Part shown: positions 20,713-36,034 of the stretch, piece by piece
Layout: each line of letters begins with the position of its first letter
Position numbering within the stretch: the stretch's first letter is position 1
Source of the DNA: an uncultured bacterium
GTDB lineage: Bacteria > Hinthialibacterota > Hinthialibacteria > OLB16
NCBI GenBank assembly: GCA_964481775.1
Contig: CAYZUX010000008.1
Span: 169-64,168, forward strand
DNA length: 64,000 nt
Reading direction: 5' to 3'
Position numbers and translations under genes: made by a program
The notes under the pieces: model-generated
Told to the model about the DNA's origin: nothing
The model's input: only the letters and a program-made list of their open reading frames with translations
Database searches by the model: none

Positions 20713-21201
20713 ATGTATGAACAGTATGCCCATGTCTTGATTTTTGCTTTCGTCGCGGCCGCGGTGGTCATCGCTCCTATCGTCCTGTTCGCGCTGATCC
20801 GTCCCGTCAAACCCCATACAGAAAAACTGACTCCATACGAATGCGGGGAACGTCCGGTCGGAGAGCCCTGGATTCAGTTCAACATCCGGTACTACGTGGT
20901 CTGTATCATCTTCCTTGTGTTCGAGGTGGAAGTTCTCTTCATGCTGCCCTGGGCGGTGGTGTTCAATGCCTTCCGGGATGGCGGCCCGGCTTTGGAGAAA
21001 GCGGCTGGTGGCTTGTCCAATCTACAAGGCGCCAGTGGGGGACTGGCCTTCATCGAGATGCTGGTTTTTCTCGTGATTCTGGCCGTTGGCTTGGCCTATG
21101 TATGGGTAAAAGGGCATCTGGAGTGGGTCAAGGAAGTGACACAACCGACTGAGATGAACAAAGAAAATTCCCTCCCAGGGACTGGGACCTACGGGCAATA
21201 G
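20713..21201 (+). CDS. nuoA: NADH-quinone oxidoreductase subunit A
   Basis: [30 protein letters not shown] and [10 protein letters not shown]; extra Gly-rich loop before TM3. Confidence 0.95.
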
Positions 21202-21217
21202 AGATTCAGGAGTAATC

Positions 21218-21715
21218 ATGGGCCTTTTGGAGCACCAGTTCGAGGACAGCGCGATTTTCGCCACGGCGGATGAGGTCATCAGTTGGGTACGCGAAAGCTC
21301 CATCTGGCCGATGACCTTCGGATTGGCCTGTTGTGCGATTGAGATGATGTCGACCGCCGCCTGCAAGTTTGATCTGGACCGTTTCGGTGCGGGGGTTTTT
21401 CGCGCTTCGCCACGCCAGTCGGACCTCATGATTGTCTCGGGAACTGTGACCAAGAAGATGGCCCCACGGCTCAAGCTGTTGTATGACCAGATGCCCGATC
21501 CCAAGTGGGTAATCGCTATGGGGAGTTGCGCGATCGGTGGAGGACCTTATTACATCCATGGTTATCATGTGGTCAAAGGTGTGGATCTGATTGTTCCGGT
21601 GGATGTGTATGTTCCCGGTTGTCCGCCTCGTCCGGAAACCCTGATTGCGGGGATCCTGGAGCTGCAGAAGAAAATTGAAGAGACGCCGACCCTGCGCCGT
21701 CCCAGCGCGGCTTAA
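21218..21715 (+). CDS. nuoB: NADH-quinone oxidoreductase subunit B
   Basis: [24 protein letters not shown] and PGCPPRPE (N2 cluster ligands); no NuoC fusion. Confidence 0.97.
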
Positions 21716-21750
21716 GGTGGTGCTTCTCAACACGATATAAGGAGCGAAGG

Positions 21751-22878
21751 TTGCCGACCGGTTCACTGAAAAGCGAACGCATGTTGATCTCGATGGGGCC
21801 GCAGCACCCTTCGACCCATGGCGTTCTACGTCTCCTTCTCCAGACCGATGGCGAGGTGATCGAAACAGCCGAGCCCTATCTCGGGTATCTGCACCGTTGC
21901 GCCGAAAAAATCGGCGAAAACCTTACCTACAATCAATACACCCCCTACACCGACCGGATGGATTACCTCGCCTCGATGAACGAGAACTGGGCGTGGTGCC
22001 GCGCGGTGGAAACCCTTTGCGGAGTGGGAGTCCCCGACCGTGCCGAGTACATCAGGGTCATTGTCTGCGAGCTCAACCGGATCGCCAGTCACCTGCTGGC
22101 TCTCGGTACCCATGGTCTCGACACTGGCGCCTTCACCCCCTTCCTCCTGGCTTTTCGTGAACGTGAGCATGTGGTTCTGATTCTCGAGGCCATCTGCGGG
22201 GCGCGTCTCACCTACAACTATGTGCGCATCGGAGGGGTGCTGTGGGACCTTCTCCCGGAACACATCGAGATGACCCTCAAATTCCTCGATCAGTTCGATG
22301 CCCGTCTGGATGAGATCAATGATCTGCTCACCCACAACCACATTTTTGTCCGGCGGACCGCCAATGTGGGAATCGTGACTCCTGAGCAGGCGATCGAGTA
22401 TGGCTTTACCGGGCCAAACCTGCGTGCCTCGGGCATCGATTGGGATTTGAGGCGGGATGAGCCTTTCTCAGTATACCCTGAGTTGAGTTTCGAGATCCCG
22501 GTTGGGAGAGGCATCAAGGGAACTATCGGAGATTCCTGGGACCGCTATTGGGTCCGTTTCGAGGAGATGCGCCAGTGTTCACGTATGATCCGGCAAGCCA
22601 TCGAGCAGCTTCCCGCAGGACCCTGCTGCGGCCCTGTTCCCAAGGTGCTCAAGGCTCCCAAGGGACGTGAAGTGTATGTCCGTACCGAGAACCCGCGCGG
22701 CGAGCTGGCCTTCTATATCGTCAGCGAGGGCAAGAACATCCCCTACCGGGTTAAGGTCCGTGCCCCGGCCTTTGTCAGCCTGTGTATTATAGAAGATCTG
22801 TGGACCAACATCTTTGTCGCCGATATGGTGGCCGCGGTGGGAAGTCTCGACATTGTCATGGGGCAGGTGGACCGCTAG
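21751..22878 (+). CDS. nuoD: NADH-quinone oxidoreductase subunit D (not fused to NuoC)
   Basis: MGPQHPSTHGVLRL, GYLHR, DRMDYL, ENPRGE and C-terminal LDIVMGQVDR. No Ni-binding CxxC pairs. SD AAGGAG before the TTG start. Confidence 0.96.
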   Translation: MPTGSLKSERMLISMGPQHPSTHGVLRLLLQTDGEVIETAEPYLGYLHRCAEKIGENLTYNQYTPYTDRMDYLASMNENWAWCRAVETLCGVGVPDRAEYIRVIVCELNRIASHLLALGTHGLDTGAFTPFLLAFREREHVVLILEAICGARLTYNYVRIGGVLWDLLPEHIEMTLKFLDQFDARLDEINDLLTHNHIFVRRTANVGIVTPEQAIEYGFTGPNLRASGIDWDLRRDEPFSVYPELSFEIPVGRGIKGTIGDSWDRYWVRFEEMRQCSRMIRQAIEQLPAGPCCGPVPKVLKAPKGREVYVRTENPRGELAFYIVSEGKNIPYRVKVRAPAFVSLCIIEDLWTNIFVADMVAAVGSLDIVMGQVDR

Positions 22879-22881
22879 ATC

Positions 22882-24114
22882 ATGTACTCCAAGCTCTACG
22901 ATATCCTCTACTCCAGCCTCGAGTTCCTTTTGAATATCCCCTTCTGGGTATTCGGATCGCAGGTACCGGACTGGCTGGTTTTCATCCATGTCAGCCTGGT
23001 GCTGGGCGGAATCTGTGTCATGGGCTTTGTCTCGGTGCTGGCCATGTTTTCGGTTTGGGCGGAGAGAAAAGTTTCGGCTTTCATGCAGGCCCGTCTCGGA
23101 CCGATGGAGGTGGGGGCCTATCATGGCTGGCTGCAAACTGTGGCCGATGCCATGAAACTCCTGCTCAAGGAAGACATCATCCCCGCTTCCTCGGACAAGG
23201 CGCTTTTCCTCATTGCGCCGATGCTGGTGTTTACTGGGACATTGATCTCTTACGTGGTCATCCCCTTCGGTCCTTTTCTCAAAGTTGCGGATATGGATCT
23301 GGGGGTGTTCTACATCCTGGCCACCTCGGCCCTGGTGGTGGTCGGGATCATTTCGGCTGGGTGGGCCTCCTTCAACAAGTGGTCCATCTATGGCTCCATG
23401 CGTGCCGCCTCACAGTATATCAGTTATGAGATCCCGACTGCGTTGCACCTGCTGCCGGCAATCCTGATGGCTGGATCGCTGAATATGTCGGTCATCGCGG
23501 ATAGCCAGACGTATTACCTGGGCGATCCGAATCAACCTTTCTACAAAGACTTCAGCTTCCTGAACTGGGCGGTATGGCCCTGGATCAATCCCTTTGCCAC
23601 TGCCTCCTTCATCATGTACTACATTGCCAGCCTGGCGGAGACACAGAGGACACCATTCGATCTGGCCGAATCCGAGTCGGAGCTCGTGGCGGGCAGTCAC
23701 ACCGAGTTTTCGGGCATCCGCTGGTCATTCTTCTTCCTGGCGGAATATGCCGATATGTTCGTGGTTTCAGCCCTGGGGACCGTGGTGTTCCTCGGCGGCT
23801 GGCATGGAATTCCGTTGATTCCACCATTACCGGAGTTCATGCTCAAAACTTTGTTCCTGATGTTCGTGGCCATCTGGCTGCGCTGGACTTTGCCACGCTT
23901 GCGTGTTGACCAGCTGACCTATGTCTGTTGGAAGGTGCTGCTCCCCTTCGGTTTCGTCACCGTGTTGGGGACTGCTTTCTGGCAGCTTTATTTCACACGC
24001 CGTCCAGCGGGTTATGTGGCGGGGATCGTGTTGACCGCACTGGTGGTTTTTGTGATCCACCGGATCTGGAAAAGCGAGCCGGTGCCCAAACGGCAGCCGG
24101 TGTTAGCGGTGTAG
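22882..24114 (+). CDS. nuoH: NADH-quinone oxidoreductase subunit H, extended termini
   Basis: AERKVSAFMQARLGP, ADAMKLLLKED, ETQRTPFDLAESESELVAG and RWTLPRLRVDQL. Confidence 0.96.
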   Translation: MYSKLYDILYSSLEFLLNIPFWVFGSQVPDWLVFIHVSLVLGGICVMGFVSVLAMFSVWAERKVSAFMQARLGPMEVGAYHGWLQTVADAMKLLLKEDIIPASSDKALFLIAPMLVFTGTLISYVVIPFGPFLKVADMDLGVFYILATSALVVVGIISAGWASFNKWSIYGSMRAASQYISYEIPTALHLLPAILMAGSLNMSVIADSQTYYLGDPNQPFYKDFSFLNWAVWPWINPFATASFIMYYIASLAETQRTPFDLAESESELVAGSHTEFSGIRWSFFFLAEYADMFVVSALGTVVFLGGWHGIPLIPPLPEFMLKTLFLMFVAIWLRWTLPRLRVDQLTYVCWKVLLPFGFVTVLGTAFWQLYFTRRPAGYVAGIVLTALVVFVIHRIWKSEPVPKRQPVLAV

Positions 24115-24184
24115 GGCGGGGCTTGCCCCGCCGTGGAAGTCAGGGTTCCTATGGACCAAATCGGTGGGGCAAGCCCCACCCTAC
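24111..24184. repeat. REPIN, REP family A doublet between nuoH and nuoI
   Basis: GTAGGGCGGGGCTTGCCCCGCC (24111-24132) and inverted GGTGGGGCAAGCCCCACCCTAC (24163-24184). Confidence 0.88.
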
Positions 24185-24233
24185 AAGGGTCAGGTTCGGT
24201 TGGTTAAACCGCACCCCACAAGAGATAAGGAAT

Positions 24234-24770
24234 ATGGAATCAGTCCGTCGGTATTTCAAAGAAGTCGTGGATGGGTTCGTCACCGTGCTGGTCGGCATGG
24301 TGGTGACCGGGCGCGAGTTCGTGCAGCACAAGGAGCGGGTCATCACCACCCAATACCCCAAGGAGGCGACAGTCCTGCCGCCGCGTTTCCGGGGGATGCT
24401 CTTCAATGATGTTCAGAAGTGCATCGCGTGCCTGCTGTGCGCCAAGGACTGCCCTGTGGACTGCATTGTGGTGACAGGTGTTGGCAAGGGAAAAGCGCGC
24501 CGCCCCGATGTCTTTACAATCGATTTTAACAAATGTATGTGGTGCAATCTGTGCGTGGAGGTCTGCCCGGTCGAGAGCCTCTACATGACCCATGAATTCG
24601 AAACCACCTTCCGGGACCGGAGGAACATGCTGGTCGATTTCATGAAGTATGATCAGGCTCCGCCGCGTCCCATCGGGGATGAGATTGCACCTGAGAAGCA
24701 ATGGACCGGCCCGAAGGCCAAGGTGGTGGAGCCACCAGTTACGGAGGAGCCACCGAAAACGGAGGCGTAG
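24234..24770 (+). CDS. nuoI: NADH-quinone oxidoreductase subunit I
   Basis: Two ferredoxin motifs, CIACLLCAKDCP and CMWCNLCVEVCP. ATG 24234 follows SD AAGGA. Confidence 0.96.
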   Translation: MESVRRYFKEVVDGFVTVLVGMVVTGREFVQHKERVITTQYPKEATVLPPRFRGMLFNDVQKCIACLLCAKDCPVDCIVVTGVGKGKARRPDVFTIDFNKCMWCNLCVEVCPVESLYMTHEFETTFRDRRNMLVDFMKYDQAPPRPIGDEIAPEKQWTGPKAKVVEPPVTEEPPKTEA

Positions 24771-24839
24771 GGTGGGGCTTGCCCCACCATGTTTTTACGA
24801 CGGTTGTTGATTACCCCGGTGGGGCAAGCCCCACCCTAA
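24767..24839. repeat. REPIN, REP family A doublet between nuoI and nuoJ
   Basis: GTAGGGTGGGGCTTGCCCCACC (24767-24788) and inverted GGTGGGGCAAGCCCCACCCTAA (24818-24839). Confidence 0.88.
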
Positions 24840-24844
24840 AAGAT

Positions 24845-25357
24845 ATGTTTGACTTCATCTTCTATCTCTTTTCCTTGGTGTGCGTGGGCTCGGCGTTGTT
24901 CGTGGCCTTCACTCCCAATGTGGTCCATGCGGCCCTCTCGCTGGGAGCCACCTTCGCGAGCATGGCGGGCCTTTATCTCCTGCTGGGAGCGGACTTCATC
25001 GCGGTCACCCAGGTGGCCATCTATGTCGGCGCGATCCTGGTCCTCATGCTCTTTGGCATCATGTACACCCACAATGTGGCGCGGATCTCCGGGGAGGAGG
25101 TCACCATGCAGGTCGGCGCGGGATTGGTGGTGGCGTTTCTGACCCTCTTCACCCTGGTGGCTGCGGTGGTTTCGACCCAGTGGCCGGTCAAGGAAGTGGC
25201 CAGTCCGCAGCCCACCGTGGAACGCATCGGCGTCCTGTTTCTGACCGACTACCTGATTCCCTTCGAGGTGGCCTCGGTGCTGCTTCTGGTGGCTCTCATC
25301 GGCGCGGTTGTCATCGCCCACTCAGTCCAGACAGCCAGGAGCGAGGATGAATCATGA
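24845..25357 (+). CDS. nuoJ: NADH-quinone oxidoreductase subunit J
   Basis: NVVHAALSL, QVAIYVGAILVLMLFGIM and YLIPFEVASVLLLVALIGAV. Confidence 0.95.
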   Translation: MFDFIFYLFSLVCVGSALFVAFTPNVVHAALSLGATFASMAGLYLLLGADFIAVTQVAIYVGAILVLMLFGIMYTHNVARISGEEVTMQVGAGLVVAFLTLFTLVAAVVSTQWPVKEVASPQPTVERIGVLFLTDYLIPFEVASVLLLVALIGAVVIAHSVQTARSEDES

Positions 25358-25659
25358 TCGGGCTGACCCACTTTCTCATTGTCAGCGCGCTGTTGTTCTC
25401 CATTGGCCTGTTCATTGTCATCACACGCCGTCATGGGATCATGATGTTGATGGGACTGGAGATCATCCTGAATGCGGCCAACCTGAATCTGGTGGCCTTC
25501 AGCCGTTATGTCGAGGGTGGGGTGCGCGGCCAGGCTTTCGCGGTCTTCGTGATCATCCTCGCGGCGGCAGAGGCGGCCATCGCGCTGGCGATCATCCTCT
25601 CGATCTACTCGAATCTTTCGAAGATCAATCTCGATGAACTCAAGAGTATGAAGGAATAG
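25354..25659 (+). CDS. nuoK: NADH-quinone oxidoreductase subunit K
   Basis: MLMGLEIILNAANLNLVAFS and AAAEAAIALAI (both conserved Glu present); ATGA overlap with nuoJ. Confidence 0.96.
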   Translation: MIGLTHFLIVSALLFSIGLFIVITRRHGIMMLMGLEIILNAANLNLVAFSRYVEGGVRGQAFAVFVIILAAAEAAIALAIILSIYSNLSKINLDELKSMKE

Positions 25660-25665
25660 GCCGCC

Positions 25666-27828
25666 ATGGTGATCCGTCCCCTGCTCATTGTCCTGTTCCC
25701 CCTGCTCTCTTTCTGGGTGATCATGCTTTTCGGAAGGATGGGGAAGCTGCGCGGCATCTGTGACAAGATCGCGGTCGGCGCGATCGCCTTGTCTTTCCTG
25801 CTCTCCTACACCATCTACCGCCAGGCTATCTCGGCTTACAATGGCGGCGAGGAATTTCTGGTTCTCAACCAGACTCCTTATGCCTTTATGACCTTCACCA
25901 ATCCCGAAACAGGGGCTCCCCTAGTCTGGAAGCTCGGTTTCTGGATCGACAGCCTGACCGCGATGATGCTGATGGTAGTCACCATTGTCAGTCTCCTGGT
26001 CCACATCTTTTCATTGGGCTATATGAAGGGTGAGGAGAATTATGGACGATTTTTCGGATTTCTCAGTCTTTTCTCCTTCTCGATGCTGTTGCTGGTTCTG
26101 ACTGACAACCTCTTCATCCTGTATGTCTGCTGGGAGCTGGTCGGCATCTCCTCGTTCCTGTTGATCGGGTTCTATGTGAACCGGGCTTCGGCGGCGGCCG
26201 CCGCCAAGAAGGCCTTTCTTACCAACCGGGTGGGCGATCTGGGCTTCGCGATCGGCCTCTTCATCATTTACTCCAAGTTCCACACTTTCTCGTATATCGA
26301 GGTCTTCGAACGGATCAAGGCCGGCGAAATGAGTGGAACCCTGCTCACCATTACCAGCCTGTTCCTGTTCTGCGGCGCGGTGGGCAAGTCGGCGCAGTTC
26401 CCACTTCACATTTGGCTCCCCGATGCCATGGAAGGCCCGACTCCGGTCAGCGCCCTGATCCATGCCGCGACCATGGTGGCCGCCGGGGTCTACATGGTGG
26501 CGCGTCTGTTCCCCATCTTCACTCCCGATTCACTGCTGGTGGTGGCCTACATCGGGACTTTCACCGCACTCATGGCCGCGACCATTGCCATCACTCAGTT
26601 CGACATCAAACGGGTGCTGGCCTATTCCACCCTGAGTCAGCTTGGCTACATGATGGCGGGCCTGGGTGTGACCGCTTATACCGCATCCATGTTCCACCTG
26701 ACCACCCATGCCTTTTTCAAGGCGTTGCTCTTTCTCTGCTCCGGTTCGGTCATTCTTGCGCTGCACCATGAGCAGGATATGCGCAAGATGGGCGGCCTGT
26801 GGAGGAAGACACCCATCACCTGTCTGACCATGCTGATAGGCTGCCTGGCGATCTCGGGAATCCCCTTCCTCTCAGGATTTTATTCGAAGGACATGATCCT
26901 TGCCGGCGCGCTCCACTTTGGCATGGAACACCCGCAACACATGCTGCTGCCCATCGCCCTCTTCGCCGCCGCCGGGATGACCGCCTTTTACATGTTCCGT
27001 CTCTTCTTCATGACCTTCACCGGAACTCCCAGAGATTCCCATGCCTTCAGCCATGCCCATGAAAGCCCGCGAGTGGTTACCATTCCCCTGATATTGCTCG
27101 CTTTGCTTTCGATCGGTTCGGGGTGGGAGCATGTGGGATTGGGCGGGTTCTTCAAGGAACGGGTCATTCCATTCGGGAGCCCTCCGCCAGCTGTCAGTCA
27201 TCAGGCTTCCGTTGATGCGGGCGGGCAGGCCGCCTTCGCCCAGGATACCCATGAAGCGCCCGCCGCTCCGGTGGCTCATGGAACCGCTGCTCCACCCGAA
27301 GGGCACTCAACAGGTGGTCATGCCACCCATGACATCGCGCACACCGCGCATGTCCTGGCCATGACCTTGAGCGTAATTGGCTCGGTAATCGCCATTTTCT
27401 TTTCCGCCTTGTGCTACTGGGAACGCTTCCGGGTGATCGATCCGGCACGTGGTGCGCGGATGTTTGGCAAGCTCTATGACCTTTCCTACAACAAGTACTA
27501 TGTCGATGAGTTCTATGACCGCACCCTCTACCGGGCTGTGGACTGGTTGCGAGGATCTCTGGCTCGTTTCGACCTGGGAATCATCGATGGGATTGTGAAT
27601 GGATCAGCTCATTACACCGCCAGGTTCTCCAAAGGAACTGGACGTTTTGACCTGGGAATCATTGATGGCATTGTGAACTGGTTTGCCGATTTCTGTCAGG
27701 ACATCGGTCAACGGGTTCGCAGGGTGGAGACCGGTATCATCCAAAATTACATTCTCAGGGCCGGTGGTGCGGTGGGAGTGATCGTGATTGTCTGGATTGT
27801 AGTGAAGAGTCTTGTGGGAGGGGCATAA
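25666..27828 (+). CDS. nuoL: NADH-quinone oxidoreductase subunit L with His-rich loop and 26-aa duplicated transverse-helix segment
   Basis: CWELVG, GKSAQFPLHIWLPDAMEGPTPVSALIHAATMV, FHLTTHAFFKALLFL, FYSKD and NKYYVDEFY motifs. Confidence 0.97.
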   Translation: MVIRPLLIVLFPLLSFWVIMLFGRMGKLRGICDKIAVGAIALSFLLSYTIYRQAISAYNGGEEFLVLNQTPYAFMTFTNPETGAPLVWKLGFWIDSLTAMMLMVVTIVSLLVHIFSLGYMKGEENYGRFFGFLSLFSFSMLLLVLTDNLFILYVCWELVGISSFLLIGFYVNRASAAAAAKKAFLTNRVGDLGFAIGLFIIYSKFHTFSYIEVFERIKAGEMSGTLLTITSLFLFCGAVGKSAQFPLHIWLPDAMEGPTPVSALIHAATMVAAGVYMVARLFPIFTPDSLLVVAYIGTFTALMAATIAITQFDIKRVLAYSTLSQLGYMMAGLGVTAYTASMFHLTTHAFFKALLFLCSGSVILALHHEQDMRKMGGLWRKTPITCLTMLIGCLAISGIPFLSGFYSKDMILAGALHFGMEHPQHMLLPIALFAAAGMTAFYMFRLFFMTFTGTPRDSHAFSHAHESPRVVTIPLILLALLSIGSGWEHVGLGGFFKERVIPFGSPPPAVSHQASVDAGGQAAFAQDTHEAPAAPVAHGTAAPPEGHSTGGHATHDIAHTAHVLAMTLSVIGSVIAIFFSALCYWERFRVIDPARGARMFGKLYDLSYNKYYVDEFYDRTLYRAVDWLRGSLARFDLGIIDGIVNGSAHYTARFSKGTGRFDLGIIDGIVNWFADFCQDIGQRVRRVETGIIQNYILRAGGAVGVIVIVWIVVKSLVGGA
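27565..27678 (+). repeat. In-frame direct repeat in nuoL, period 78 bp (RFDLGIIDGIVN x2)
   Basis: 27565-27600 vs 27643-27678: 32/36 nt identical, all four differences synonymous. Confidence 0.95.
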
Positions 27829-27833
27829 ACCCG

Positions 27834-29393
27834 ATGTTCAGTCTGACTTTCCTGACCTTCTTCCCCATTATCGGCGCGGCGATACTCTGCGTCCTGCGCG
27901 ATGATGAGACCATCCGCCGTGTGGCTCTGGTGATCACGCTGATCACCTTCGTGCCTGGGTTGGCGATGATGTTAGACTTCAACGAAAGCTACAGCGAAGC
28001 TCAGGTGGCTGCCGCCGCCATGCCCCAAGCCGCCGGAAAGATGGTTTTCGCTTATGAGAAAAAAAACCCCTGGATCGGTTCCTTCAATATCAACTACCAC
28101 ATGGGCGCTGATGGGCTGTCCATGCCCTTCATATTCCTCACCGCTTTTCTCTGTCCCTTGTGTGTACTGGCCTCTTGGGGGATCAAGGAAAAGGTGAAGG
28201 GCTACATGGCGCTCTTCCTGCTGTTGGAGGGGGCCATGATCGGAGTTTTCGCGGCCCTGGATCTCTTCCTCTTTTTTGTGTTCTGGGAGCTGATGCTGGT
28301 GCCGATGTATTTCCTGATCGGCATCTGGGGCGGGCCACGGCGGGTGTATGCCGCCATCAAGTTCGTGCTTTACACCCTTTTTGGCTCGGTGTTCCTCTTC
28401 ATCGCCATGCTGGTCCTGTTTGCCAAGACCGGTTCCTTCAGTCTGGTTGACCTGCCTGCCATGATGAGCGGGATAGGGATGTCCTGGGGGATCAAGGTGG
28501 CCCTCTTCATCGGATTGTATGTCGCCTTCGCGATCAAGATCCCGGCCTTCCCCTTCCACACCTGGTTGCCGGATGCCCATGTGGAGGCTCCCACAGCGAT
28601 CAGTGTGATCCTGGCGGGGATCCTGTTGAAGATGGGAACTTACGGTCTTTTCAGGATCAGCTTTCCCATCTTCCCGGAGGCGACCGCCTGGTTCTGTACT
28701 CCTCTGGCCATCTTCGGTCTGATCAACATCGTGTATGGTGCGCTCTGCGCCATGGCCCAGTCTGACCTCAAGAAGCTGGTTGCCTACTCCAGCATCAGCC
28801 ACATGGGGTATGTCATGCTGGGGATGGCGGTTTACAAGGAGGAGGCCCTGCAAGGAGCGGTCTTCCAGATGTTCAACCATGGAACCATCACCTCCATGCT
28901 GTTCCTTCTGGTCGGTGTGGTTTATGACCGTGCCCACCACAGGGAGATCGATGGCTTCGGCGGGCTGGTCAAACCGATGCCGATCTATGGCGGCTACACC
29001 GCTTTCGCTTTCTTTGCGGCCTTGGGACTGCCGGGCTTGAGCGGATTTATTTCCGAGGCGTTGATCTTCTTCGGGTCTTTCCAGGAGCAACGGTTGATCG
29101 CCTGTCTGGCCACCTCGGGGATTTTGCTTGGTGCGGCTTACATGTTGTGGACCTACCAGCGTGTCTTCATGGGGCCGCTTAATGAGAAATACGAAACCAT
29201 CCCCGAGATCAACCTGCGTGAGATCTGCACCCTCGCCCCGCTGGCCTTTGTCATTCTCCTGTTGGGAATCTTCCCTTCCATCTTTCTCAATTCGATTGAT
29301 CCGACCATGGATGCGATGTTGGCCCTGTTGCAGAAAGGGAGAGTGGCCTACGAGGCGATGAGCGCTCAGGTGGCGATGATAGGGATGCCCTGA
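27834..29393 (+). CDS. nuoM: NADH-quinone oxidoreductase subunit M (single copy)
   Basis: FFVFWELMLVP, AFAIKIPAFPFHTWLPDAHVEAP, LLKMG, AYSSISHMG and GFISE. Confidence 0.97.
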   Translation: MFSLTFLTFFPIIGAAILCVLRDDETIRRVALVITLITFVPGLAMMLDFNESYSEAQVAAAAMPQAAGKMVFAYEKKNPWIGSFNINYHMGADGLSMPFIFLTAFLCPLCVLASWGIKEKVKGYMALFLLLEGAMIGVFAALDLFLFFVFWELMLVPMYFLIGIWGGPRRVYAAIKFVLYTLFGSVFLFIAMLVLFAKTGSFSLVDLPAMMSGIGMSWGIKVALFIGLYVAFAIKIPAFPFHTWLPDAHVEAPTAISVILAGILLKMGTYGLFRISFPIFPEATAWFCTPLAIFGLINIVYGALCAMAQSDLKKLVAYSSISHMGYVMLGMAVYKEEALQGAVFQMFNHGTITSMLFLLVGVVYDRAHHREIDGFGGLVKPMPIYGGYTAFAFFAALGLPGLSGFISEALIFFGSFQEQRLIACLATSGILLGAAYMLWTYQRVFMGPLNEKYETIPEINLREICTLAPLAFVILLLGIFPSIFLNSIDPTMDAMLALLQKGRVAYEAMSAQVAMIGMP

Positions 29394-29421
29394 TGGACTG
29401 AAGTAAGAACGGTAACGAAAC

Positions 29422-30918
29422 ATGCTCACATGGCTCAGTAACATAGAATCCTTACGGTACTTTATTCCGGAACTGTGGCTCACTTTATGGGTTTTGATCC
29501 TGCTCATTCAACCTTTGATTCCCAGGTTCTCCAGCCCCAGGCTGTCCTCTCAGCTGGCGCTGGTAGCGTTGATCGGGGCATGCCTGCTGGTCTTTAACCT
29601 GCCTGTAATTGAAGGTTCTCAAGGACTCTTCTTTGGCATGCTGGCGGGGGATGGCCTGGCGAAATTCTTCAAGATCCTGTTTGTCCTCACCACGCTGGTC
29701 ACGGTCCTCATGACCGCCGGGGGTCAGGAAGTCGACGACTCTCGCAAGCCGGAGTTCTATTCCATCCTGTTGGGCATCCTGTTGGGCATGTTCCTGGCGG
29801 CTTCCTCAATGGACCTGTTGATGCTGTACCTTGCCATTGAGCTGCTCTCCCTGGGGTCCTATGTTCTGGCTGGTTTTGCCCAAAATGAGAATCGTTCCGA
29901 TGAAGCCGCCATGAAGTATCTCCTTTATGGAGGCCTTTCCACGGGAGCGATGCTGTACGGGATGACTTACCTGTATGGGATGTCTGGCACCACCAGTCTG
30001 ACCGGTATTCGTGATGCCATCGCCCAGGGCACACATAGTCCCGTGGCGTTTTTTGTAGCCTTTCTGTTTGTGTTCGTGGGGATTGGCTACAAGGTTTCGG
30101 CGGTTCCCTTCCACTTCTGGGCGCCGGATGTCTATGAAGGCTCCCCCACGGTACTTGTGGCATTCCTCTCTGTGGCTTCGAAGGCCGCCGGTTTCGCCGC
30201 TTTCATCCGTTTGTTCTTCACCTCGATCCTTTCGCTTGGCAACAATGGGATCTGGACACCGATTGTGGAACTCGATTGGAGGGTCATCCTCTCGTTGATC
30301 GCGATAGTCACCATGACCTTTGGCAACCTGGGGGCTTTCCGTCAGGAGAACATCAAGCGTCTTTTCGCCTATTCAGGAATTGCCCATGCCGGTTATGTTC
30401 TGGTGGGTGCTTTGGCTTTGACCACCGCAGGTGTACAAAGTGTTCTGTTTTACCTCCTCACATACCTCTTCACCAATCTCGCGGCCTTCGCTGTGATTGT
30501 TTACCTTTCGGACCGTCATGGGATGGAGGGGGTTGAGGATTACCGTGATCTGGGAAGACGTTCTCCCTTATTGGCGCTGATGTTGACCCTCTCGATCTTC
30601 TCACTGATTGGTGTACCTCCCATGGCGGGTTTCCTGGGCAAGTGGTATCTGTTTGCGGCGGCGGCCAAAACTTTGGATCCCTGGTGTATCGCGGCGGTGG
30701 TGGCTGGCCTGTTGAACTCCACTTTGTCGGTTTACTACTACATGCGAATCGTCAAAGCCATGTACCTGGATCGTTTGGAGAATCCCCCGGTGCTCACTCC
30801 AGACCATACCCTGACCACTCTTGCAACCGTTCTATCGATTCCCGTGGTCTTCCTGATCTTCACAGTGGGACCGGTCTATGACTGGACCGGGAAACTCACC
30901 CAGATGCTCCTGGGATAG
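29422..30918 (+). CDS. nuoN: NADH-quinone oxidoreductase subunit N
   Basis: AIELLSL, EAAMKY, YKVSAVPFHFWAPDVYEGSP, IKRLFAYSGIAHAGY and GFLGKW. Confidence 0.96.
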   Translation: MLTWLSNIESLRYFIPELWLTLWVLILLIQPLIPRFSSPRLSSQLALVALIGACLLVFNLPVIEGSQGLFFGMLAGDGLAKFFKILFVLTTLVTVLMTAGGQEVDDSRKPEFYSILLGILLGMFLAASSMDLLMLYLAIELLSLGSYVLAGFAQNENRSDEAAMKYLLYGGLSTGAMLYGMTYLYGMSGTTSLTGIRDAIAQGTHSPVAFFVAFLFVFVGIGYKVSAVPFHFWAPDVYEGSPTVLVAFLSVASKAAGFAAFIRLFFTSILSLGNNGIWTPIVELDWRVILSLIAIVTMTFGNLGAFRQENIKRLFAYSGIAHAGYVLVGALALTTAGVQSVLFYLLTYLFTNLAAFAVIVYLSDRHGMEGVEDYRDLGRRSPLLALMLTLSIFSLIGVPPMAGFLGKWYLFAAAAKTLDPWCIAAVVAGLLNSTLSVYYYMRIVKAMYLDRLENPPVLTPDHTLTTLATVLSIPVVFLIFTVGPVYDWTGKLTQMLLG

Positions 30919-31048: not shown

Positions 31049-32059
31049 ATGCTGCGGGTTGCCGTGATTGGCGCGGGTCCGATTGGGAACCTCCACGCCG
31101 ATATCCACAAGTCCGACCCATTGGCCGAACTCGTTGGCATTTGTGACATTATCAAGGAGCGGGCGGATAAAGCCTCAGCCCGACTGGGCATTCCCGCCTT
31201 TTATGATGCGGAAGAAATGATCCGCTCCCTGGCCCCCGACATCGCCGATGTGTGTACCGGGGGATACGAATATGGTAGCGACCACTATCTGCCCACCATG
31301 CAGGCCCTCGAGGCTGGCTGTCATGTGCTCTGTGAGAAACCGATCTCTAACGAGATCCCCCCGGCTGAGGAAATGGTCGCCAAGGCCCAGGAAAAGGGGG
31401 TCTGTTTCGGTGTCAATCTGAATCACCGTTTTACTCCCGCTGCTCGTTTGGCCAAAAAGTGGGTTGAGGAGGGGAGACTGGGCCACCTGCTGTTTATCAA
31501 TATGAGCATGTGGATCAAGAATCCCGCCGAGAGTTCTCCCTACTTCCAGATCAAGGCGCTTCATCCCCATACGGTGGATGTCATGCGTTACTACTGTGGT
31601 GATATCGAAGCCGTTCAGTGTTTCGCGGTTAAGGCTCCGGGACGTTCCATCTGGTCGACTGCCCAGTTCAATATGCGGTTCTGCAATGGTGTCGTGGGGC
31701 ACCTGACCGGCAGTTATGACATCGAGCGTGGCCACCCCATGGAGCGTTGCGAAGTAGCGGGAATAGGTGGACGCTTTGTGCTCGAGGACATGTTCCGCGA
31801 GGTGACCCTCTATCCAGCCGGGAACCTTGAAAAAACTGTGTATACCAATCCTGTTTTCGGGGGAATGCGTGAATTCAAGGATACCTTCCGAAATCGGATT
31901 CACACCTTCCTGGAACAGGTAACTGAGGGAGTCAGTCCAGGGGACATCGATGGATCGGGTGCCTCGGCTTTGGCGGCCCAAAGGGTCCTGGCCGCGGCGA
32001 TCGAGTCACTCGAGACCGAATCCGTGGTGCATGTCAGTGGTGTCCCCTGCACTGTATAA
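31049..32059 (+). CDS. Gfo/Idh/MocA family oxidoreductase
   Basis: RVAVIGAGPIG, HVLCEKPIS and GVNLNHRF. Confidence 0.92.
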   Translation: MLRVAVIGAGPIGNLHADIHKSDPLAELVGICDIIKERADKASARLGIPAFYDAEEMIRSLAPDIADVCTGGYEYGSDHYLPTMQALEAGCHVLCEKPISNEIPPAEEMVAKAQEKGVCFGVNLNHRFTPAARLAKKWVEEGRLGHLLFINMSMWIKNPAESSPYFQIKALHPHTVDVMRYYCGDIEAVQCFAVKAPGRSIWSTAQFNMRFCNGVVGHLTGSYDIERGHPMERCEVAGIGGRFVLEDMFREVTLYPAGNLEKTVYTNPVFGGMREFKDTFRNRIHTFLEQVTEGVSPGDIDGSGASALAAQRVLAAAIESLETESVVHVSGVPCTV

Positions 32060-32084
32060 TCGAACGTGAGAATAGATGAGGCAT

Positions 32085-32852
32085 TTAAGGCCCCGTCCGA
32101 TAAAGGTCCCCTTCGCTTCTGGTTCCGTTGGTTGGGCTATACACAAGCAATGAAATCTGGTTTTCCAGCAATCCACGGGGAAGTTGCCCCGCAAATCCGG
32201 TGGCATCGGAGCCGGGATGAGCGGCGCGTTCGTTGATATCCCCATGCCGTCCCCCCACTTGAGCATCGACCGCGGGCAAGAACGGAGTCCGGGTACCTGG
32301 TCCGCCACCGCTCCCTCCTGGATTGGTGAATTCGTCCATATCCGGACCAAAGCTGGTAAGAACCCATCCTTCGAGAGGCTTGGCACGGTCTTCACGATAA
32401 GAGTAAGTCAGGAAACCAGGCAGGGTTGTGAAAGGATCAGTAGGAACCGTCTTCATGTAGGCAACAGGAGTTGTCAACCCGGGCACTACCCCCACAGGCG
32501 TTCCATTTGGAACAGAGGGGAATCCCAAAGTCTCGGCCCCGTTACCTGAGAACACGGTTCGAAATGTGTAAAAGGCATAAGGACCGTGAGTGATGAAATG
32601 CTCTTTGACTTCGACAGGAACAGCATCGGGATTGTCGGTTCCAATCGGGTAGGTTGAGTGTTCGGTACGAAAGAATTCGATGGCAGTGGCCAAGGCTCGC
32701 ATATCAGCATTGGCTTTGGCCACCTTTGCTCTTATCTGAGACGATAAGAAACTTGGTAGAGCAATGGAAATCAGAATCAACATGATGGCAATTACAATCA
32801 GCAACTCGATGAGTGTGAATGCGGAGAGACCAGTCTTTGGGCGGGTAAACAT
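32085..32852 (-). CDS. Prepilin-type N-terminal cleavage/methylation domain protein (type IV pilin/pseudopilin-like)
   Basis: SA|FTLIELLIVIAIMLILISIALP with Glu5, then AKVAKANADMRALATAIE, DPF and YSPTNGT.S.GDL. Confidence 0.88.
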   Translation of the reverse strand: MFTRPKTGLSAFTLIELLIVIAIMLILISIALPSFLSSQIRAKVAKANADMRALATAIEFFRTEHSTYPIGTDNPDAVPVEVKEHFITHGPYAFYTFRTVFSGNGAETLGFPSVPNGTPVGVVPGLTTPVAYMKTVPTDPFTTLPGFLTYSYREDRAKPLEGWVLTSFGPDMDEFTNPGGSGGGPGTRTPFLPAVDAQVGGRHGDINERAAHPGSDATGFAGQLPRGLLENQISLLVYSPTNGTRSEGDLYRTGP

Positions 32853-32912
32853 GGTGTTTCATTCCTCTTTCTGAGATAAATTGGATGGCCTGAAGGTCAT
32901 CATGTTAGGCAT

Positions 32913-32941
32913 ACCTTACACATAATTGGCATACATGTCAA
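32913..32941 (-). promoter_or_regulatory. Sigma-70-type promoter of the pilin-like gene, overlapped by a GGCATAC direct repeat
   Basis: Minus strand TTGACA-17nt-TAAGGT; direct repeats at 32908-32914 and 32928-32934. Confidence 0.55.
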
Positions 32942-33103
32942 TCGGGTGGCTTGCCTTAATTTTTTTCTTCGATCATCCGGTTATCCCCCTCCTATCTGTC
33001 CCTTCCCGCCTATACACTCACGTGGTGAATTGAGACAGAATCCGGTTTCCGGAAGCCGCTTTTGGGCTGTCGATATGAGATTGATCTGAGGAGTGTGATT
33101 GTG

Positions 33104-34603
33104 ATGACCTGGCCCCTTTTCCGTTGTTTGTTGTGCCTTTCTGGATTTTTATTCGTGATTTGTGTTCCCAGTTGTCCAGCAGGTCTTCTGGAGGATCTGA
33201 CCACCATCAAAAACGAGGCTTCCCATCGCTCCTCGAGTTCGGGGGAACCCTGGACGGAATCAAATGGAGATTGCCGTCCCATCGAACCGGGGCAAACCCT
33301 ACTGTTGGGTGACCTGGAGGGACCGGGGGAGATCCGTCATATCTGGTTTACCGTGGCGGCCGAAGATGATTATTACCCGGCATCCATGGTCTTCCGTATT
33401 TTTTACGATGACCGCAAGGAGCCCGCTGTCGAATCCCCGCTGGGAGATTTCTTTGGGGTCGGGCATGGGATGAAGAAGGCCTATGACAGCCTACCGGTGG
33501 AAATCTCCTCCGATGGCAGGGCTTACAATTGCTTCTGGCGAATGCCGTTCGGGAAAAGGGCACGTCTGGAGATGACCAATGAGTCCGACAAGCGGGTCGG
33601 CTGCCTCTTTTACTACATTGACTGGGTTTCCATCCCTGCGCTCCCGCACAACACCGCTTATTTCCATGCCCAATATCGTCAGGAAAAGCCTTGCCAGCCT
33701 GGACCGAATTACCTTCTTCTGGATACCGAAGGCAGCGGGCATTATGTGGGGACTGTCCTCTCCGTGTTTCATGCCGAACCATCCTGGTTTGGGGAGGGAG
33801 ATGACTTCTTTTTCATCGATGGCGCCAAGGAGCCACAACTCAAAGGAACTGGTTCCGAGGATTATTTCTGTGATGCCTGGGGATTCCGTGAGTTTCAGCA
33901 CCTCAATCATGGGGTGACTATCTGGGAGGGATTCGATACAGGGGACCGTGGCACTGCCTATCGCTGGCATGTTCAGGACCCCATCCGGTTCGCCAAATCT
34001 CTGCGGGTGGAAATTGAACACAAAGGCGCCCGTGTGAGAGCTGATGGGAGTATGGAATCGGGCTTCATCGAACGTGCTGATGATTATTCCTCAGTCGCCT
34101 TCTGGTATCAGACGGGTGAGCCGAAACGCTTTGCTCCGCTCCCCCCCTTATCCGAAAGACGGCGGAAGACCCTGACCATCGAGACCGAGGCTTCCCTGGA
34201 TTCCATTGAGCATTCGGAAGGTGGCCTGACAATTCAGGAGGGGGGGACCTGGAATGGAGGGAAACAGGTTCTCTTCAGCCCCAGGCAGGATGGGGCCACG
34301 CTCTCGATACCTTTTGAGGTGAAAGAGCCGATCAAGGCTGTCATGCGTCTGGTTTTGACCACATCTTTTGACTATGGAACCTATGAAATTTCCATGGATG
34401 ATCAGGAGCCGGTCAAGAAGGATCTGTACTCACCGACTGTCGATAAAACAAAGGTGACCCTGAGGAAGGGGGAGATCCCTGCCGGTAAACACACACTTCG
34501 TTTTAAGGGAGTGGGTACGAATCCGAAATCGAAAATGCACAAATCCGAAGATCCAGGATATTACCTGGGTGTCGACGGGATCGAGCTGATGGAGCTGCCC
34601 TGA
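33104..34603 (+). CDS. DUF2961 / glycoside hydrolase family 172 protein with C-terminal beta-sandwich
   Basis: GPGEIRHIWFT, SPLGDFFG, NCFWRMPF, FYYID, YFHAQYR, GEGDDFFFIDG, GTGSEDYF and YRWHVQDPIRF. SD GAGGAG near 33088; the exact start (33095/33101/33104) is uncertain. Confidence 0.88.
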   Translation: MTWPLFRCLLCLSGFLFVICVPSCPAGLLEDLTTIKNEASHRSSSSGEPWTESNGDCRPIEPGQTLLLGDLEGPGEIRHIWFTVAAEDDYYPASMVFRIFYDDRKEPAVESPLGDFFGVGHGMKKAYDSLPVEISSDGRAYNCFWRMPFGKRARLEMTNESDKRVGCLFYYIDWVSIPALPHNTAYFHAQYRQEKPCQPGPNYLLLDTEGSGHYVGTVLSVFHAEPSWFGEGDDFFFIDGAKEPQLKGTGSEDYFCDAWGFREFQHLNHGVTIWEGFDTGDRGTAYRWHVQDPIRFAKSLRVEIEHKGARVRADGSMESGFIERADDYSSVAFWYQTGEPKRFAPLPPLSERRRKTLTIETEASLDSIEHSEGGLTIQEGGTWNGGKQVLFSPRQDGATLSIPFEVKEPIKAVMRLVLTTSFDYGTYEISMDDQEPVKKDLYSPTVDKTKVTLRKGEIPAGKHTLRFKGVGTNPKSKMHKSEDPGYYLGVDGIELMELP

Positions 34604-34674
34604 TAACGGCAGGTGAGATGTATTGGCCCGGACGGTGGCTAAGAACCTGATCGTAATGGATAGGAGATGAACCG

Positions 34675-35787
34675 ATGAGAAGCGATCTTCCCTTTCTGGT
34701 ACGCGCCCGTGCTCCAGTGCGTGTGGATCTTGCGGGTGGATGGACCGATGTGGCTGAGTTTTGTGAAACCACCCCGGGGGGTGTGGTGAATGTCGCCATC
34801 GACCTGTGTTCGACCGTGACGGTTATGGCCAGGACTACCAAGGTCGAGGCGGGTAGCCGGGGATGGACACTGCATTCACGGCTGGAAGATGAATCGGTGG
34901 AAATCTACTCCGCTGATTTTGATATCTACATTGAAGCCAAGCGGGTGGCGGACCTGGAGTACGATGGGAATGTGGATCTGGTGAAAGCAGCTATCAAGGA
35001 GATGGACCTGCCGGGAGGATTCACACTCATCACTGAGAGCACCGCTCCACCCGGCAGTGGATTGGGAACCAGTGCATCGCTTGGGGTTGCACTCCTGGGA
35101 GCCCTTGCCAAATATGCGGGGAAACCCTTTCTCCCATCGGAGATCGCTGAGCTGGGCAGCTCCATTGAAAGAAAACGGCTGGGAATTCGTGGCGGCAAGC
35201 AAGACCACTATGCCAGTGCGCTGGGGGGTCTGGAATTCATGGAGTTTCGTGGTGAGGATGTTAAAGCCTCTCACTTGATCACCTCGCGCAGTGTCCTTCG
35301 GGAACTGGAGTGCAACCTGGTTTTGATCTACACCGGCAAGTCCCGTCTTTCGGGAGACATCCACCAAAGGGTCAGTGATGCCTATCACTCGGGGCGTGGT
35401 GAGACTCACGATGCCATCGAGGAAATGAAACGGATCGCCCGGGAGATGAAAGACGCCCTGATTCTGGACGATCTGGATGCGGTTGGACCCTTGATGAGCC
35501 GTAACTGGGAGTGCCAGAAAAAACTGCATCCGGATGTCACCAATCCCACCATCGATCACCTGTTTGAGGTTGCGATGACCTCCGGAGCCTCGGGAGGGAA
35601 AGCCTGTGGTGCGGGTGGAGGAGGCTGCCTCGTGTTCATCTGTGGTCCGCATGATACGCACCGCTTAAAAAGAGCGCTCCGTGCGGTTCCGGGAGTCCAG
35701 GTTCTACCGGTCCGGATCGATTCGCGTGGACTTGATAACTGGGATCCCCCTTTACCAGCCAGTTTTGGAGGTGATTCGATCTCCTGA
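34675..35787 (+). CDS. GHMP-family sugar kinase (HddA/fucokinase-like)
   Basis: RAPVRVDLAGGWTD, PPGSGLGTS, GKQDHYASALGG and GKACGAGGGG. Confidence 0.88.
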   Translation: MRSDLPFLVRARAPVRVDLAGGWTDVAEFCETTPGGVVNVAIDLCSTVTVMARTTKVEAGSRGWTLHSRLEDESVEIYSADFDIYIEAKRVADLEYDGNVDLVKAAIKEMDLPGGFTLITESTAPPGSGLGTSASLGVALLGALAKYAGKPFLPSEIAELGSSIERKRLGIRGGKQDHYASALGGLEFMEFRGEDVKASHLITSRSVLRELECNLVLIYTGKSRLSGDIHQRVSDAYHSGRGETHDAIEEMKRIAREMKDALILDDLDAVGPLMSRNWECQKKLHPDVTNPTIDHLFEVAMTSGASGGKACGAGGGGCLVFICGPHDTHRLKRALRAVPGVQVLPVRIDSRGLDNWDPPLPASFGGDSIS

Positions 35788-36034
35788 AGTTAGAACCAGA
35801 GGCAGTGGATTCCTTTCTTTGTGAAGATGATTCCGTACAGATGAATCACGCGAAGAACGATTTTTATGTGAATCTCACAAAACCGGGAATCCATGGTGAT
35901 CGGGGAGTTCTAGGGAATCGCTTAGATCGAGAAAATACTCTACAATCGGGTGTAGCAGTCCGATATAAAAAACATTCGCTATACCGCTCTCTGGTGGAGT
36001 TCTTCCAAGTGGAGTGTAAGAAAGCGCCACATCC

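Follow-up and report, generated by a model that had tools for sequence, protein, structure and literature searches.

The stretch of DNA analyzed here (64,000 nt of an uncultured bacterium of the Hinthialibacterota, OLB16, hereafter the window) encodes a complex I-type enzyme in which one protein, NuoL, carries the same short motif twice. The nuo genes lie in the order A-B-D-H-I-J-K-L-M-N (20713-30918, ten genes, intergenic gaps of -4 to 119 nt), and the gene under study, an intact nuoL encoding 720 aa (25666-27828, plus strand), is located 3' of nuoK and 5' of nuoM. The genes of the operon were assigned as follows.

20713..21201, plus strand: nuoA (Pfam Oxidored_q4, E 6e-32)
21218..21715, plus strand: nuoB (Pfam Oxidored_q6, E 4e-29), 35 nt before nuoD
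21751..22878, plus strand: nuoD, unfused, 375 aa (Pfam Complex1_49kDa, E 1.5e-89)
22882..24114, plus strand: nuoH (Pfam NADHdh, E 1e-105), 3 nt 3' of nuoD
24234..24770, plus strand: nuoI, likely start ATG 24234 (two 4Fe-4S ferredoxin motifs; Pfam Fer4, Fer4_7)
24845..25357, plus strand: nuoJ, likely start 24845 (Pfam Oxidored_q3; 170 aa, equal to its homologue in locus L083, a close relative)
25354..25659, plus strand: nuoK (Pfam Oxidored_q2)
25666..27828, plus strand: nuoL, 720 aa (Pfam Proton_antipo_N, Proton_antipo_M; sequence and fold matches in the PDB)
27834..29393, plus strand: nuoM, single copy, 5 nt 3' of nuoL (Pfam Proton_antipo_M, Oxidored_q5_N)
29422..30918, plus strand: nuoN (Pfam Proton_antipo_M; best match of the nuoN open reading frames from other loci)

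The predicted protein is a NuoL by its antiporter core, by the extension formed by transmembrane helix 15 (TM15), the lateral helix HL and TM16, by its proton-path residues and by its nuoK and nuoM neighbors. Both expected domains were found (PF00662, Proton_antipo_N, E 4.9e-18; PF00361, Proton_antipo_M, E 2e-80), and a phmmer search against PDB sequences returned NdhF, NuoL and Nqo12 with E values of 1e-105 to 1e-123. An AlphaFold2 model was built from a 32-sequence alignment (mean predicted local distance difference test score, pLDDT, of 76.6), and its top Foldseek matches in the PDB were NdhF, NuoL and ND5 chains, with target-normalized template modeling scores (TM-scores) of 0.77-0.86; the root mean square deviation rises from 4-5 A to 9-12 A once the target includes HL and TM16, which could come from a longer helix as well as from poor modeling of this region. 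The motifs WELVG (156), GKSAQ (240), HLTTHAFFKA (344) and SKD (407) are present, and E157, K241, H344, H348, K352, K408 and D409 are invariant within the same alignment. We take these residues to be the proton-path positions of the E. coli protein (TM5 Glu, TM7 Lys, the His/His/Lys of TM8 and the Lys-Asp of TM12). When the cores of NuoL, NuoM and NuoN were used as tblastn queries, just three antiporter-like genes and no second nuoM were recovered across the 64-kb window, which bears out, and extends to the whole window, an initial sequence-only reading of this DNA (the first-pass annotation) in which the operon encoded only L, M and N. The window therefore holds one nuoM between nuoL and nuoN, and not the L-M-M-N arrangement of complexes with a second NuoM (2M complexes).

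Within NuoL, residues 634-645 (nt 27565-27600) and 660-671 (nt 27643-27678) both read RFDLGIIDGIVN, 78 nt or 26 codons from start to start. The copies are identical in 12/12 residues and in 32/36 nt, and their four differences (TTC/TTT, ATC/ATT, GGG/GGC and AAT/AAC) are all synonymous, as the first-pass annotation had noted. The likeness is confined to this motif: the 14 residues 3' of each copy share one position (1/14), and the remainder of the 78-nt unit is identical in 15 of 42 nt, so that what had been noted as a repeat holds for the 12 residues and fails for the rest of the unit. Tandem Repeats Finder reported no DNA repeat. The duplication is an old one, since similarity in DNA ends with the 12-residue motif, the sequences after the two copies are unrelated, Tandem Repeats Finder was negative and the codon matches (see below) do not exceed expectation. 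Selection on both copies had also been proposed, from the synonymous differences within the gene; that argument does not stand, since eight of the 12 codons are identical between the copies versus 5.3 expected from the codon usage of the operon (P = 0.09), and the proposal itself is upheld by the conservation across homologs described below. With the same P value of 0.09, gene conversion between the copies is not needed to account for their similarity.

The duplication lengthens HL by exactly one 26-residue unit. The C-terminal part of the protein is organized as follows.

27181..27321, plus strand: Pro/Ala/His-rich loop before TM15, residues 506-552 (AlphaFold2 pLDDT <50, no secondary structure)
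27322..27417, plus strand: TM15, predicted helix, residues 553-584 (AlphaFold2, DSSP)
27496..27735, plus strand: lateral helix HL, YYVDEFY to ETG, residues 611-690 (aligns with HL of NdhF, Paracoccus NuoL and Thermus Nqo12)
27565..27642, plus strand: HL module 1, residues 634-659, RFDLGIIDGIVN and 14 further residues (aligns with the single motif of the solved chains)
27643..27720, plus strand: HL module 2, residues 660-685, RFDLGIIDGIVN and 14 unrelated residues (no counterpart in PDB chains)
27736..27816, plus strand: TM16 anchor, predicted helix, residues 691-717 (AlphaFold2, DSSP)

In the phmmer alignments, the segment YYVDEFY...FDLGIIDGIVNG matches the start of HL and the single D-x-x-V-I-D-G-x-V-N motif of NdhF (cyanobacterial and chloroplast) and of Paracoccus NuoL. 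In the alignment with Thermus Nqo12 (4he8_L), a gap of about 26 residues opens straight after motif 1 and closes at QTG before TM16. The solved NuoL, Nqo12, ND5 and NdhF chains (3rko_L, 4he8_L, 8qby_L, 6hum_F) thus share with the window protein the fold, the pumping residues and the TM15-HL-TM16 extension, but have one copy of the motif, at equal distances from YVDE and QTG, and therefore one module versus two. Those distances are 22 residues from YVDE to the motif and 28 from the motif to QTG, each of which corresponds roughly to the width of one subunit. V613 and G690 delimit a span of 78 residues; counted between the D of YVDE and the G of QTG it is 76, versus 50-52 in 51 other loci (see below); the first-pass annotation had thus measured the lengthening correctly, and we agree with its estimate that 26 helical residues, about 39 A, equal about one antiporter-like subunit. 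The alignment with solved HL chains also places the duplication inside the helix and not outside it, as had been supposed. The repeated motif, x-F-D-x-x-[VI]-[IV]-D-G-x-V-N, is the conserved core of a single 26-residue HL module that was duplicated in tandem long ago. Much of the extra length of NuoL comes from another element, the Pro/Ala/His-rich loop between TM14 and TM15, which differs in length between close relatives (NuoL of 718-780 aa).

The two modules are not peculiar to this protein. In a search of 5.8 billion proteins, all of the 120 best matches (46-96% identity) had the same span and both motifs, and these homologs bore names as diverse as Omnitrophica, Calditrichaeota, Planctomycetes, Glassbacteria, Wallbacteria, Krumholzibacteriia, Chloroflexi and Caldithrix abyssi, among others; the 75%-identity cluster of the window protein itself takes in "Ca. 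Hinthialibacteria" OLB16 and metagenome-assembled genomes labeled "Omnitrophica". Pooled with the long-helix loci of the genomic survey (see below), they form a set of 145 long-helix proteins, in 140 of which both motif copies stand at fixed offsets from QTG. The conservation of the individual motif positions in the first and second copy is as follows.

F: copy 1, 96%; copy 2, 65%
first D: copy 1, 100%; copy 2, 98%
second D: copy 1, 100%; copy 2, 98%
G: copy 1, 95%; copy 2, 94%
V: copy 1, 97%; copy 2, 94%
N: copy 1, 97%; copy 2, 94%

Identity between the two copies of a protein is usually 7-8 of 12 residues, the 12/12 of the window being the highest value among the 140 proteins (its 96%-identical relative has 10/12), and G659, located between the modules, is nearly invariant. 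With both copies retained at constant offsets in 140/145 of these proteins, the two-module helix is a selected state and unlikely to be a relic.

The relationship between helix length and number of nuoM genes was surveyed in 80 nuoL loci with 10-kb flanks, obtained by scanning one genome per GTDB species, to which two close relatives of the window were added (82 loci). Briefly, open reading frames were assigned by BLASTP to the Nuo proteins of the window, the span between the D of YVDE and the G of QTG was measured, the end of HL being recognized as G-x4-[YF] followed by a hydrophobic stretch, and antiporter-like genes were counted by tblastn on both strands (for the two-nuoM count of Nitrospira, the open reading frame and tblastn tables were combined). 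The span could be measured in 80 of the 82 genome and metagenome loci, or 81 with the window, and is bimodal: 51 loci have 50-52 residues and 30, the window among them, have 76-86. Twenty-seven of the long-helix loci are complete through nuoN: 25 have the order L-M-N (two of these, L015 and L062, with a fragmented nuoM) and two, both from Nitrospira (L022 and L029), have L-M-M-N. Two more close relatives, L083 (87% NuoL identity) and L084 (64%), are likewise L-M-N with a long helix, and the one-nuoM long-helix loci belong to about ten phyla, with Ignavibacteria, Planctomycetota, Zixibacteria, Binatia, NC10, Acidobacteriota and Verrucomicrobiota among them. Within 10 kb of the 25 one-nuoM loci no other antiporter-like gene was found, except for complete second L-M-N operons arranged tail to tail in three (L018; L023, assigned to "Ca. 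Udaeobacter", Verrucomicrobiota; and L036).

Thus, within our sample the long helix is necessary for the 2M arrangement (2/2) but a poor predictor of a second nuoM (2/27). Nearly all operons with the two-module HL encode just one NuoM, so this helix does not mark the presence of a second: it is the regular state, a class trait, of a large and phylogenetically broad set of operons. The first-pass annotation had read the lengthened helix as a 2M signature and the locus as an undescribed complex I architecture, and had itself named a wide occurrence of the duplication in three-antiporter complexes as an observation that would speak against this; the one-nuoM operons of the survey are that observation. 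Neither the 2M reading nor that of an undescribed architecture is therefore supported as something peculiar to this locus, which is a regular member of the widespread one-nuoM, two-module class. Long-helix operons also tend to share their upstream organization, nuoH or nuoI following nuoD directly, with no gap large enough for nuoEFG, in 20 of the 22 with data (the exceptions are the two Nitrospira loci); most short-helix loci have 14 genes and a gap the size of EFG, and eight EFG-less operons are short as well. In L022 and L029 about 2.9 kb separates nuoD from nuoI. In Acidobacteriota, L025, L030 and L040 have a span of 86, with about 10 additional, Gly-rich residues inserted ahead of motif 1, and the long-helix loci L020 and L047 have the gene order D-I-J-K-L-M-N-H.

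A neighbor-joining tree of the NuoL core (200 bootstraps) grouped the window with a large set of Ignavibacteria, Planctomycetota and Zixibacteria. The acidobacterial long-helix proteins (spans 77-86) formed a clade with 94% bootstrap, Binatia fell with Thermoanaerobaculia, NC10 was found near the Nitrospira 2M loci (L015 joined to them with 26% bootstrap), and the remaining long-helix sequences were singletons.

Among the closest known systems are the one-nuoM clusters of "Ca. Manganitrophaceae". Complex_I_1 and Complex_I_2 of this family, otherwise canonical and with one nuoM, have a 26-residue HL insertion in NuoL, and whether they accept an extra subunit or represent an evolutionary transition was left open (Yu et al. 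2022, mBio, PMC9040806). Judged by that published description, the insert and the single nuoM are as in the window, whose operon differs in belonging to another phylum and in additionally lacking nuoC and nuoEFG. The combination of an HL extension with a single nuoM has thus been reported before for one family; the present analysis adds that it is widespread and strongly selected. As for 2M complexes (Chadwick et al. 2018, ISME J, as cited in later papers), PMC6606698 and PMC9040806 describe an HL of NuoL that is longer by 26 residues, so that the link between the lengthened helix and a second NuoM made in the first-pass annotation is correct as far as 2M complexes go, and the former states that the Nitrospira 2M complex CI_1 lacks NuoE and NuoF. 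The Nitrospira loci of our survey have the same 76-residue span as the window and a recognizable but degenerate second motif (WTEKHVIYGGLN and WVEKYMVYGFLN, identical to their own first copy in 4/12 and 2/12 positions); the second nuoM that defines them is absent from the window, whose second motif, like that of one-nuoM proteins in general, is far better kept than theirs.

Multiplication of the module goes further in another protein family. A 45-residue query containing the double motif gave 40 matches among 1.84 billion representatives, a query too short for the size of the family to be read from this number; two of the matches (P0146 and P0152) are unrelated repeat proteins. A metagenomic fragment (L085, 459-779) encodes five modules with a 78-nt period, about 80% DNA identity between copies and one in-frame stop. 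Its relatives, named "Ca. Methylomirabilis" or NC10 (P0175-P0196), have 2, 3, 4, 5 or 6 copies of the motif at a constant spacing of exactly 26 residues, in some cases followed by one further degenerate copy. The C-terminal end of these NuoL-like proteins is a NuoL-type HL, made up of repeats of the 26-residue module seen in the window, and TM16. Because in L086 (6427-8454) and L087 (4-909) the gene is followed by DabA (PF10070), and not by nuoM or nuoN, the NC10 multi-module proteins are DabB-type subunits of CO2-uptake complexes. They share the module and its spacing with the window NuoL but, standing next to DabA, are part of another complex; in the solved DabB2 of H. neapolitanus the HL is merely short (PMC13144422). 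On this evidence the module is a repeatable unit, present in varying number alongside a single antiporter-like subunit. Since the DabB-type proteins carry 2-7 modules without a further antiporter-like gene, the number of modules does not equal the count of antiporter subunits. Nearly all of the NC10 multi-module proteins are annotated as partial and lie on short contigs; perhaps the repeats break assemblies.

Considering these results together, we regard it as probable that the two-module HL is a trait of complexes with three antiporter-like subunits and one nuoM, in which the helix serves as a longer strap. In such a complex, module 1 would take the docking position that the single module has in solved enzymes, module 2 would add another acidic docking site, no less conserved, about one subunit width further on, and TM16 would anchor further toward the NuoK/J/A-NuoH end of the membrane arm, possibly with a kink at G659 between the modules. 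Several observations weigh against this interpretation. None of the PDB chains in which the double motif was sought has two copies, so the placement of module 2 and TM16 is an extrapolation from one-module chains, and AlphaFold2 confidence is low across HL (pLDDT 48-68). The genome was covered here over 64 kb, and a paralogous nuo operon is present in a relative, "Ca. Hinthialibacter antarcticus" (L088), which makes subunits supplied in trans conceivable. Also, a single clade of all long-helix NuoL proteins has 0% bootstrap support and the deep nodes of the tree are weak, so that the trait may have arisen once, with precise losses later, or by recurrent duplication. Finally, the 26 added residues correspond to the width of one antiporter-like subunit, and both 2M loci are long-helix.

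This last point, in particular, would be expected if the complex held a fourth antiporter-like subunit beyond those of the operon, either NuoM incorporated twice or a paralog from elsewhere in the genome, spanned by the extra module. That module 2 has the same acidic motif as module 1 would suit a matching surface on a homologous subunit, this lineage can carry two nuo operons (L088), and, as the operon has no nuoC, supply in trans may already occur. We nevertheless consider a fourth subunit unlikely, because nearly all complete long-helix loci (25/27) have one nuoM and, the three second operons aside, no other antiporter-like gene nearby, nor is there an extra one in the window; moreover, the two NuoM proteins of 2M loci are diverged paralogs with their own neighbors (331 and 240 bits versus the window NuoM), and in the DabB-type proteins the module was multiplied next to a single antiporter-like subunit. 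Alternatively, HL might be kinked or folded back at the conserved glycine and reach no further than usual, with TM16 in its canonical position and module 2 in additional contact with NuoN, lipid or a peripheral part. The AlphaFold2 model has helices at 611-657 and 666-688 and a break at 658-665, at the nearly invariant G659, but the break is predicted with pLDDT <50. Likewise, 26 residues are not a whole number of helical turns, and on an ideal helix (hydrophobic-moment phase) this period turns the hydrophobic face of module 2 by about 80 degrees from that of module 1; this phase argument is weak, given that the shift is a necessary outcome of 26 residues and that the hydrophobic face of the short canonical HL drifts comparably. 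The variable module numbers of the DabB-type proteins would fit a segmented chain of short helices more easily, while the exact 26-residue spacing suggests a ruler-like role, and on balance an unchanged reach seems rather unlikely to us.

Two further explanations concern the origin of module 2. It is possible to view it as the decaying relic of a 2M state lost by deletion of a nuoM, a relic of that state being one of the options listed in the first-pass annotation, and the intermixing of 2M and one-nuoM long-helix NuoL in the neighbor-joining tree, with L015 beside Nitrospira at 26% bootstrap, would agree with this. However, module 2 is conserved like module 1 in 140 of 145 proteins, its spacing is invariant with no insertions or deletions, the two motifs of the window are identical, and it is in the Nitrospira 2M proteins that the second copy is the more degenerate one (2-4/12 identical), which makes a relic in the one-nuoM enzymes very improbable. 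A recent duplication, gene conversion or an assembly artifact in this contig could explain why the identity between motifs (12/12 in protein, 32/36 in DNA) is the highest of its set, but is hardly conceivable when two modules are found in independent assemblies of homologs down to 46% identity, when the other 42 nt of the unit are so dissimilar that Tandem Repeats Finder reports no repeat, and when the codon identity is within expectation.

Regarding the implications, a 26-residue HL extension alone is insufficient for annotating a 2M, five-proton complex I. In a large group of enzymes, among them those of the cultured Melioribacter and Caldithrix, the strap exceeds every solved one by about 39 A, and the binding site of module 2 bears both on the role of the lateral helix and on the origin of 2M complexes from a helix that was already long enough. 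That the NuoEFG-less class as a whole has four antiporter-like positions filled from three genes, by NuoM used twice or by a paralog from a second operon, is doubtful; if true, it would mean five protons per cycle in many phyla scored as ordinary by gene content.

The operon also lacks nuoC and nuoEFG. The 35-nt gap between nuoB and nuoD (21715-21751) leaves no room for nuoC, and five NuoC queries gave no tblastn match below E 0.09 in the 64-kb window, so the absence of nuoC from the operon, which the first-pass annotation had pointed out, is real; of the canonical module of 11 core subunits (NuoA-D, H-N), NuoC is the one missing from the window. The same ten-gene order without nuoC is found on four related contigs (L001, L002, L083 and L084; 64-87% NuoL identity), whereas all other long-helix operons in which nuoB and nuoD were seen have a nuoC-sized gap (11/11) with a NuoC open reading frame in it. 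A supply of nuoC in trans is possible, since the paralogous operon of "Ca. Hinthialibacter antarcticus", to which the lineage of the window is probably related, has 11 genes including nuoC, as well as a long helix and one nuoM. A literature search on nuoC-less operons returned nothing relevant. Neither nuoE, nuoF nor nuoG is located between nuoD and nuoH (22878-22882, 3 nt). NuoB keeps the cysteines of CCxxE, GSC and PGCPP, and the termini of NuoD are of the complex I type and not of the hydrogenase type. The enzyme is therefore of the complex I type without NuoEFG, encoded by a ten-gene nuoABDHIJKLMN operon. Ferredoxin may be its electron donor, as in cyanobacterial NDH-1, although this is a guess on our part.

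Around the operon, an Rfam scan of the whole window identified no RNA family. A Phenol_MetA_deg porin-like gene lies directly 5' of nuoA in both the window and L083. On the 3' side, the genes at 31049-38356 are syntenic with positions 15825-22157 of L083 and encode a GFO/IDH/MocA oxidoreductase, a DUF2961/GH172 protein, a GHMP kinase and a STAS-PAS histidine kinase with a receiver domain.

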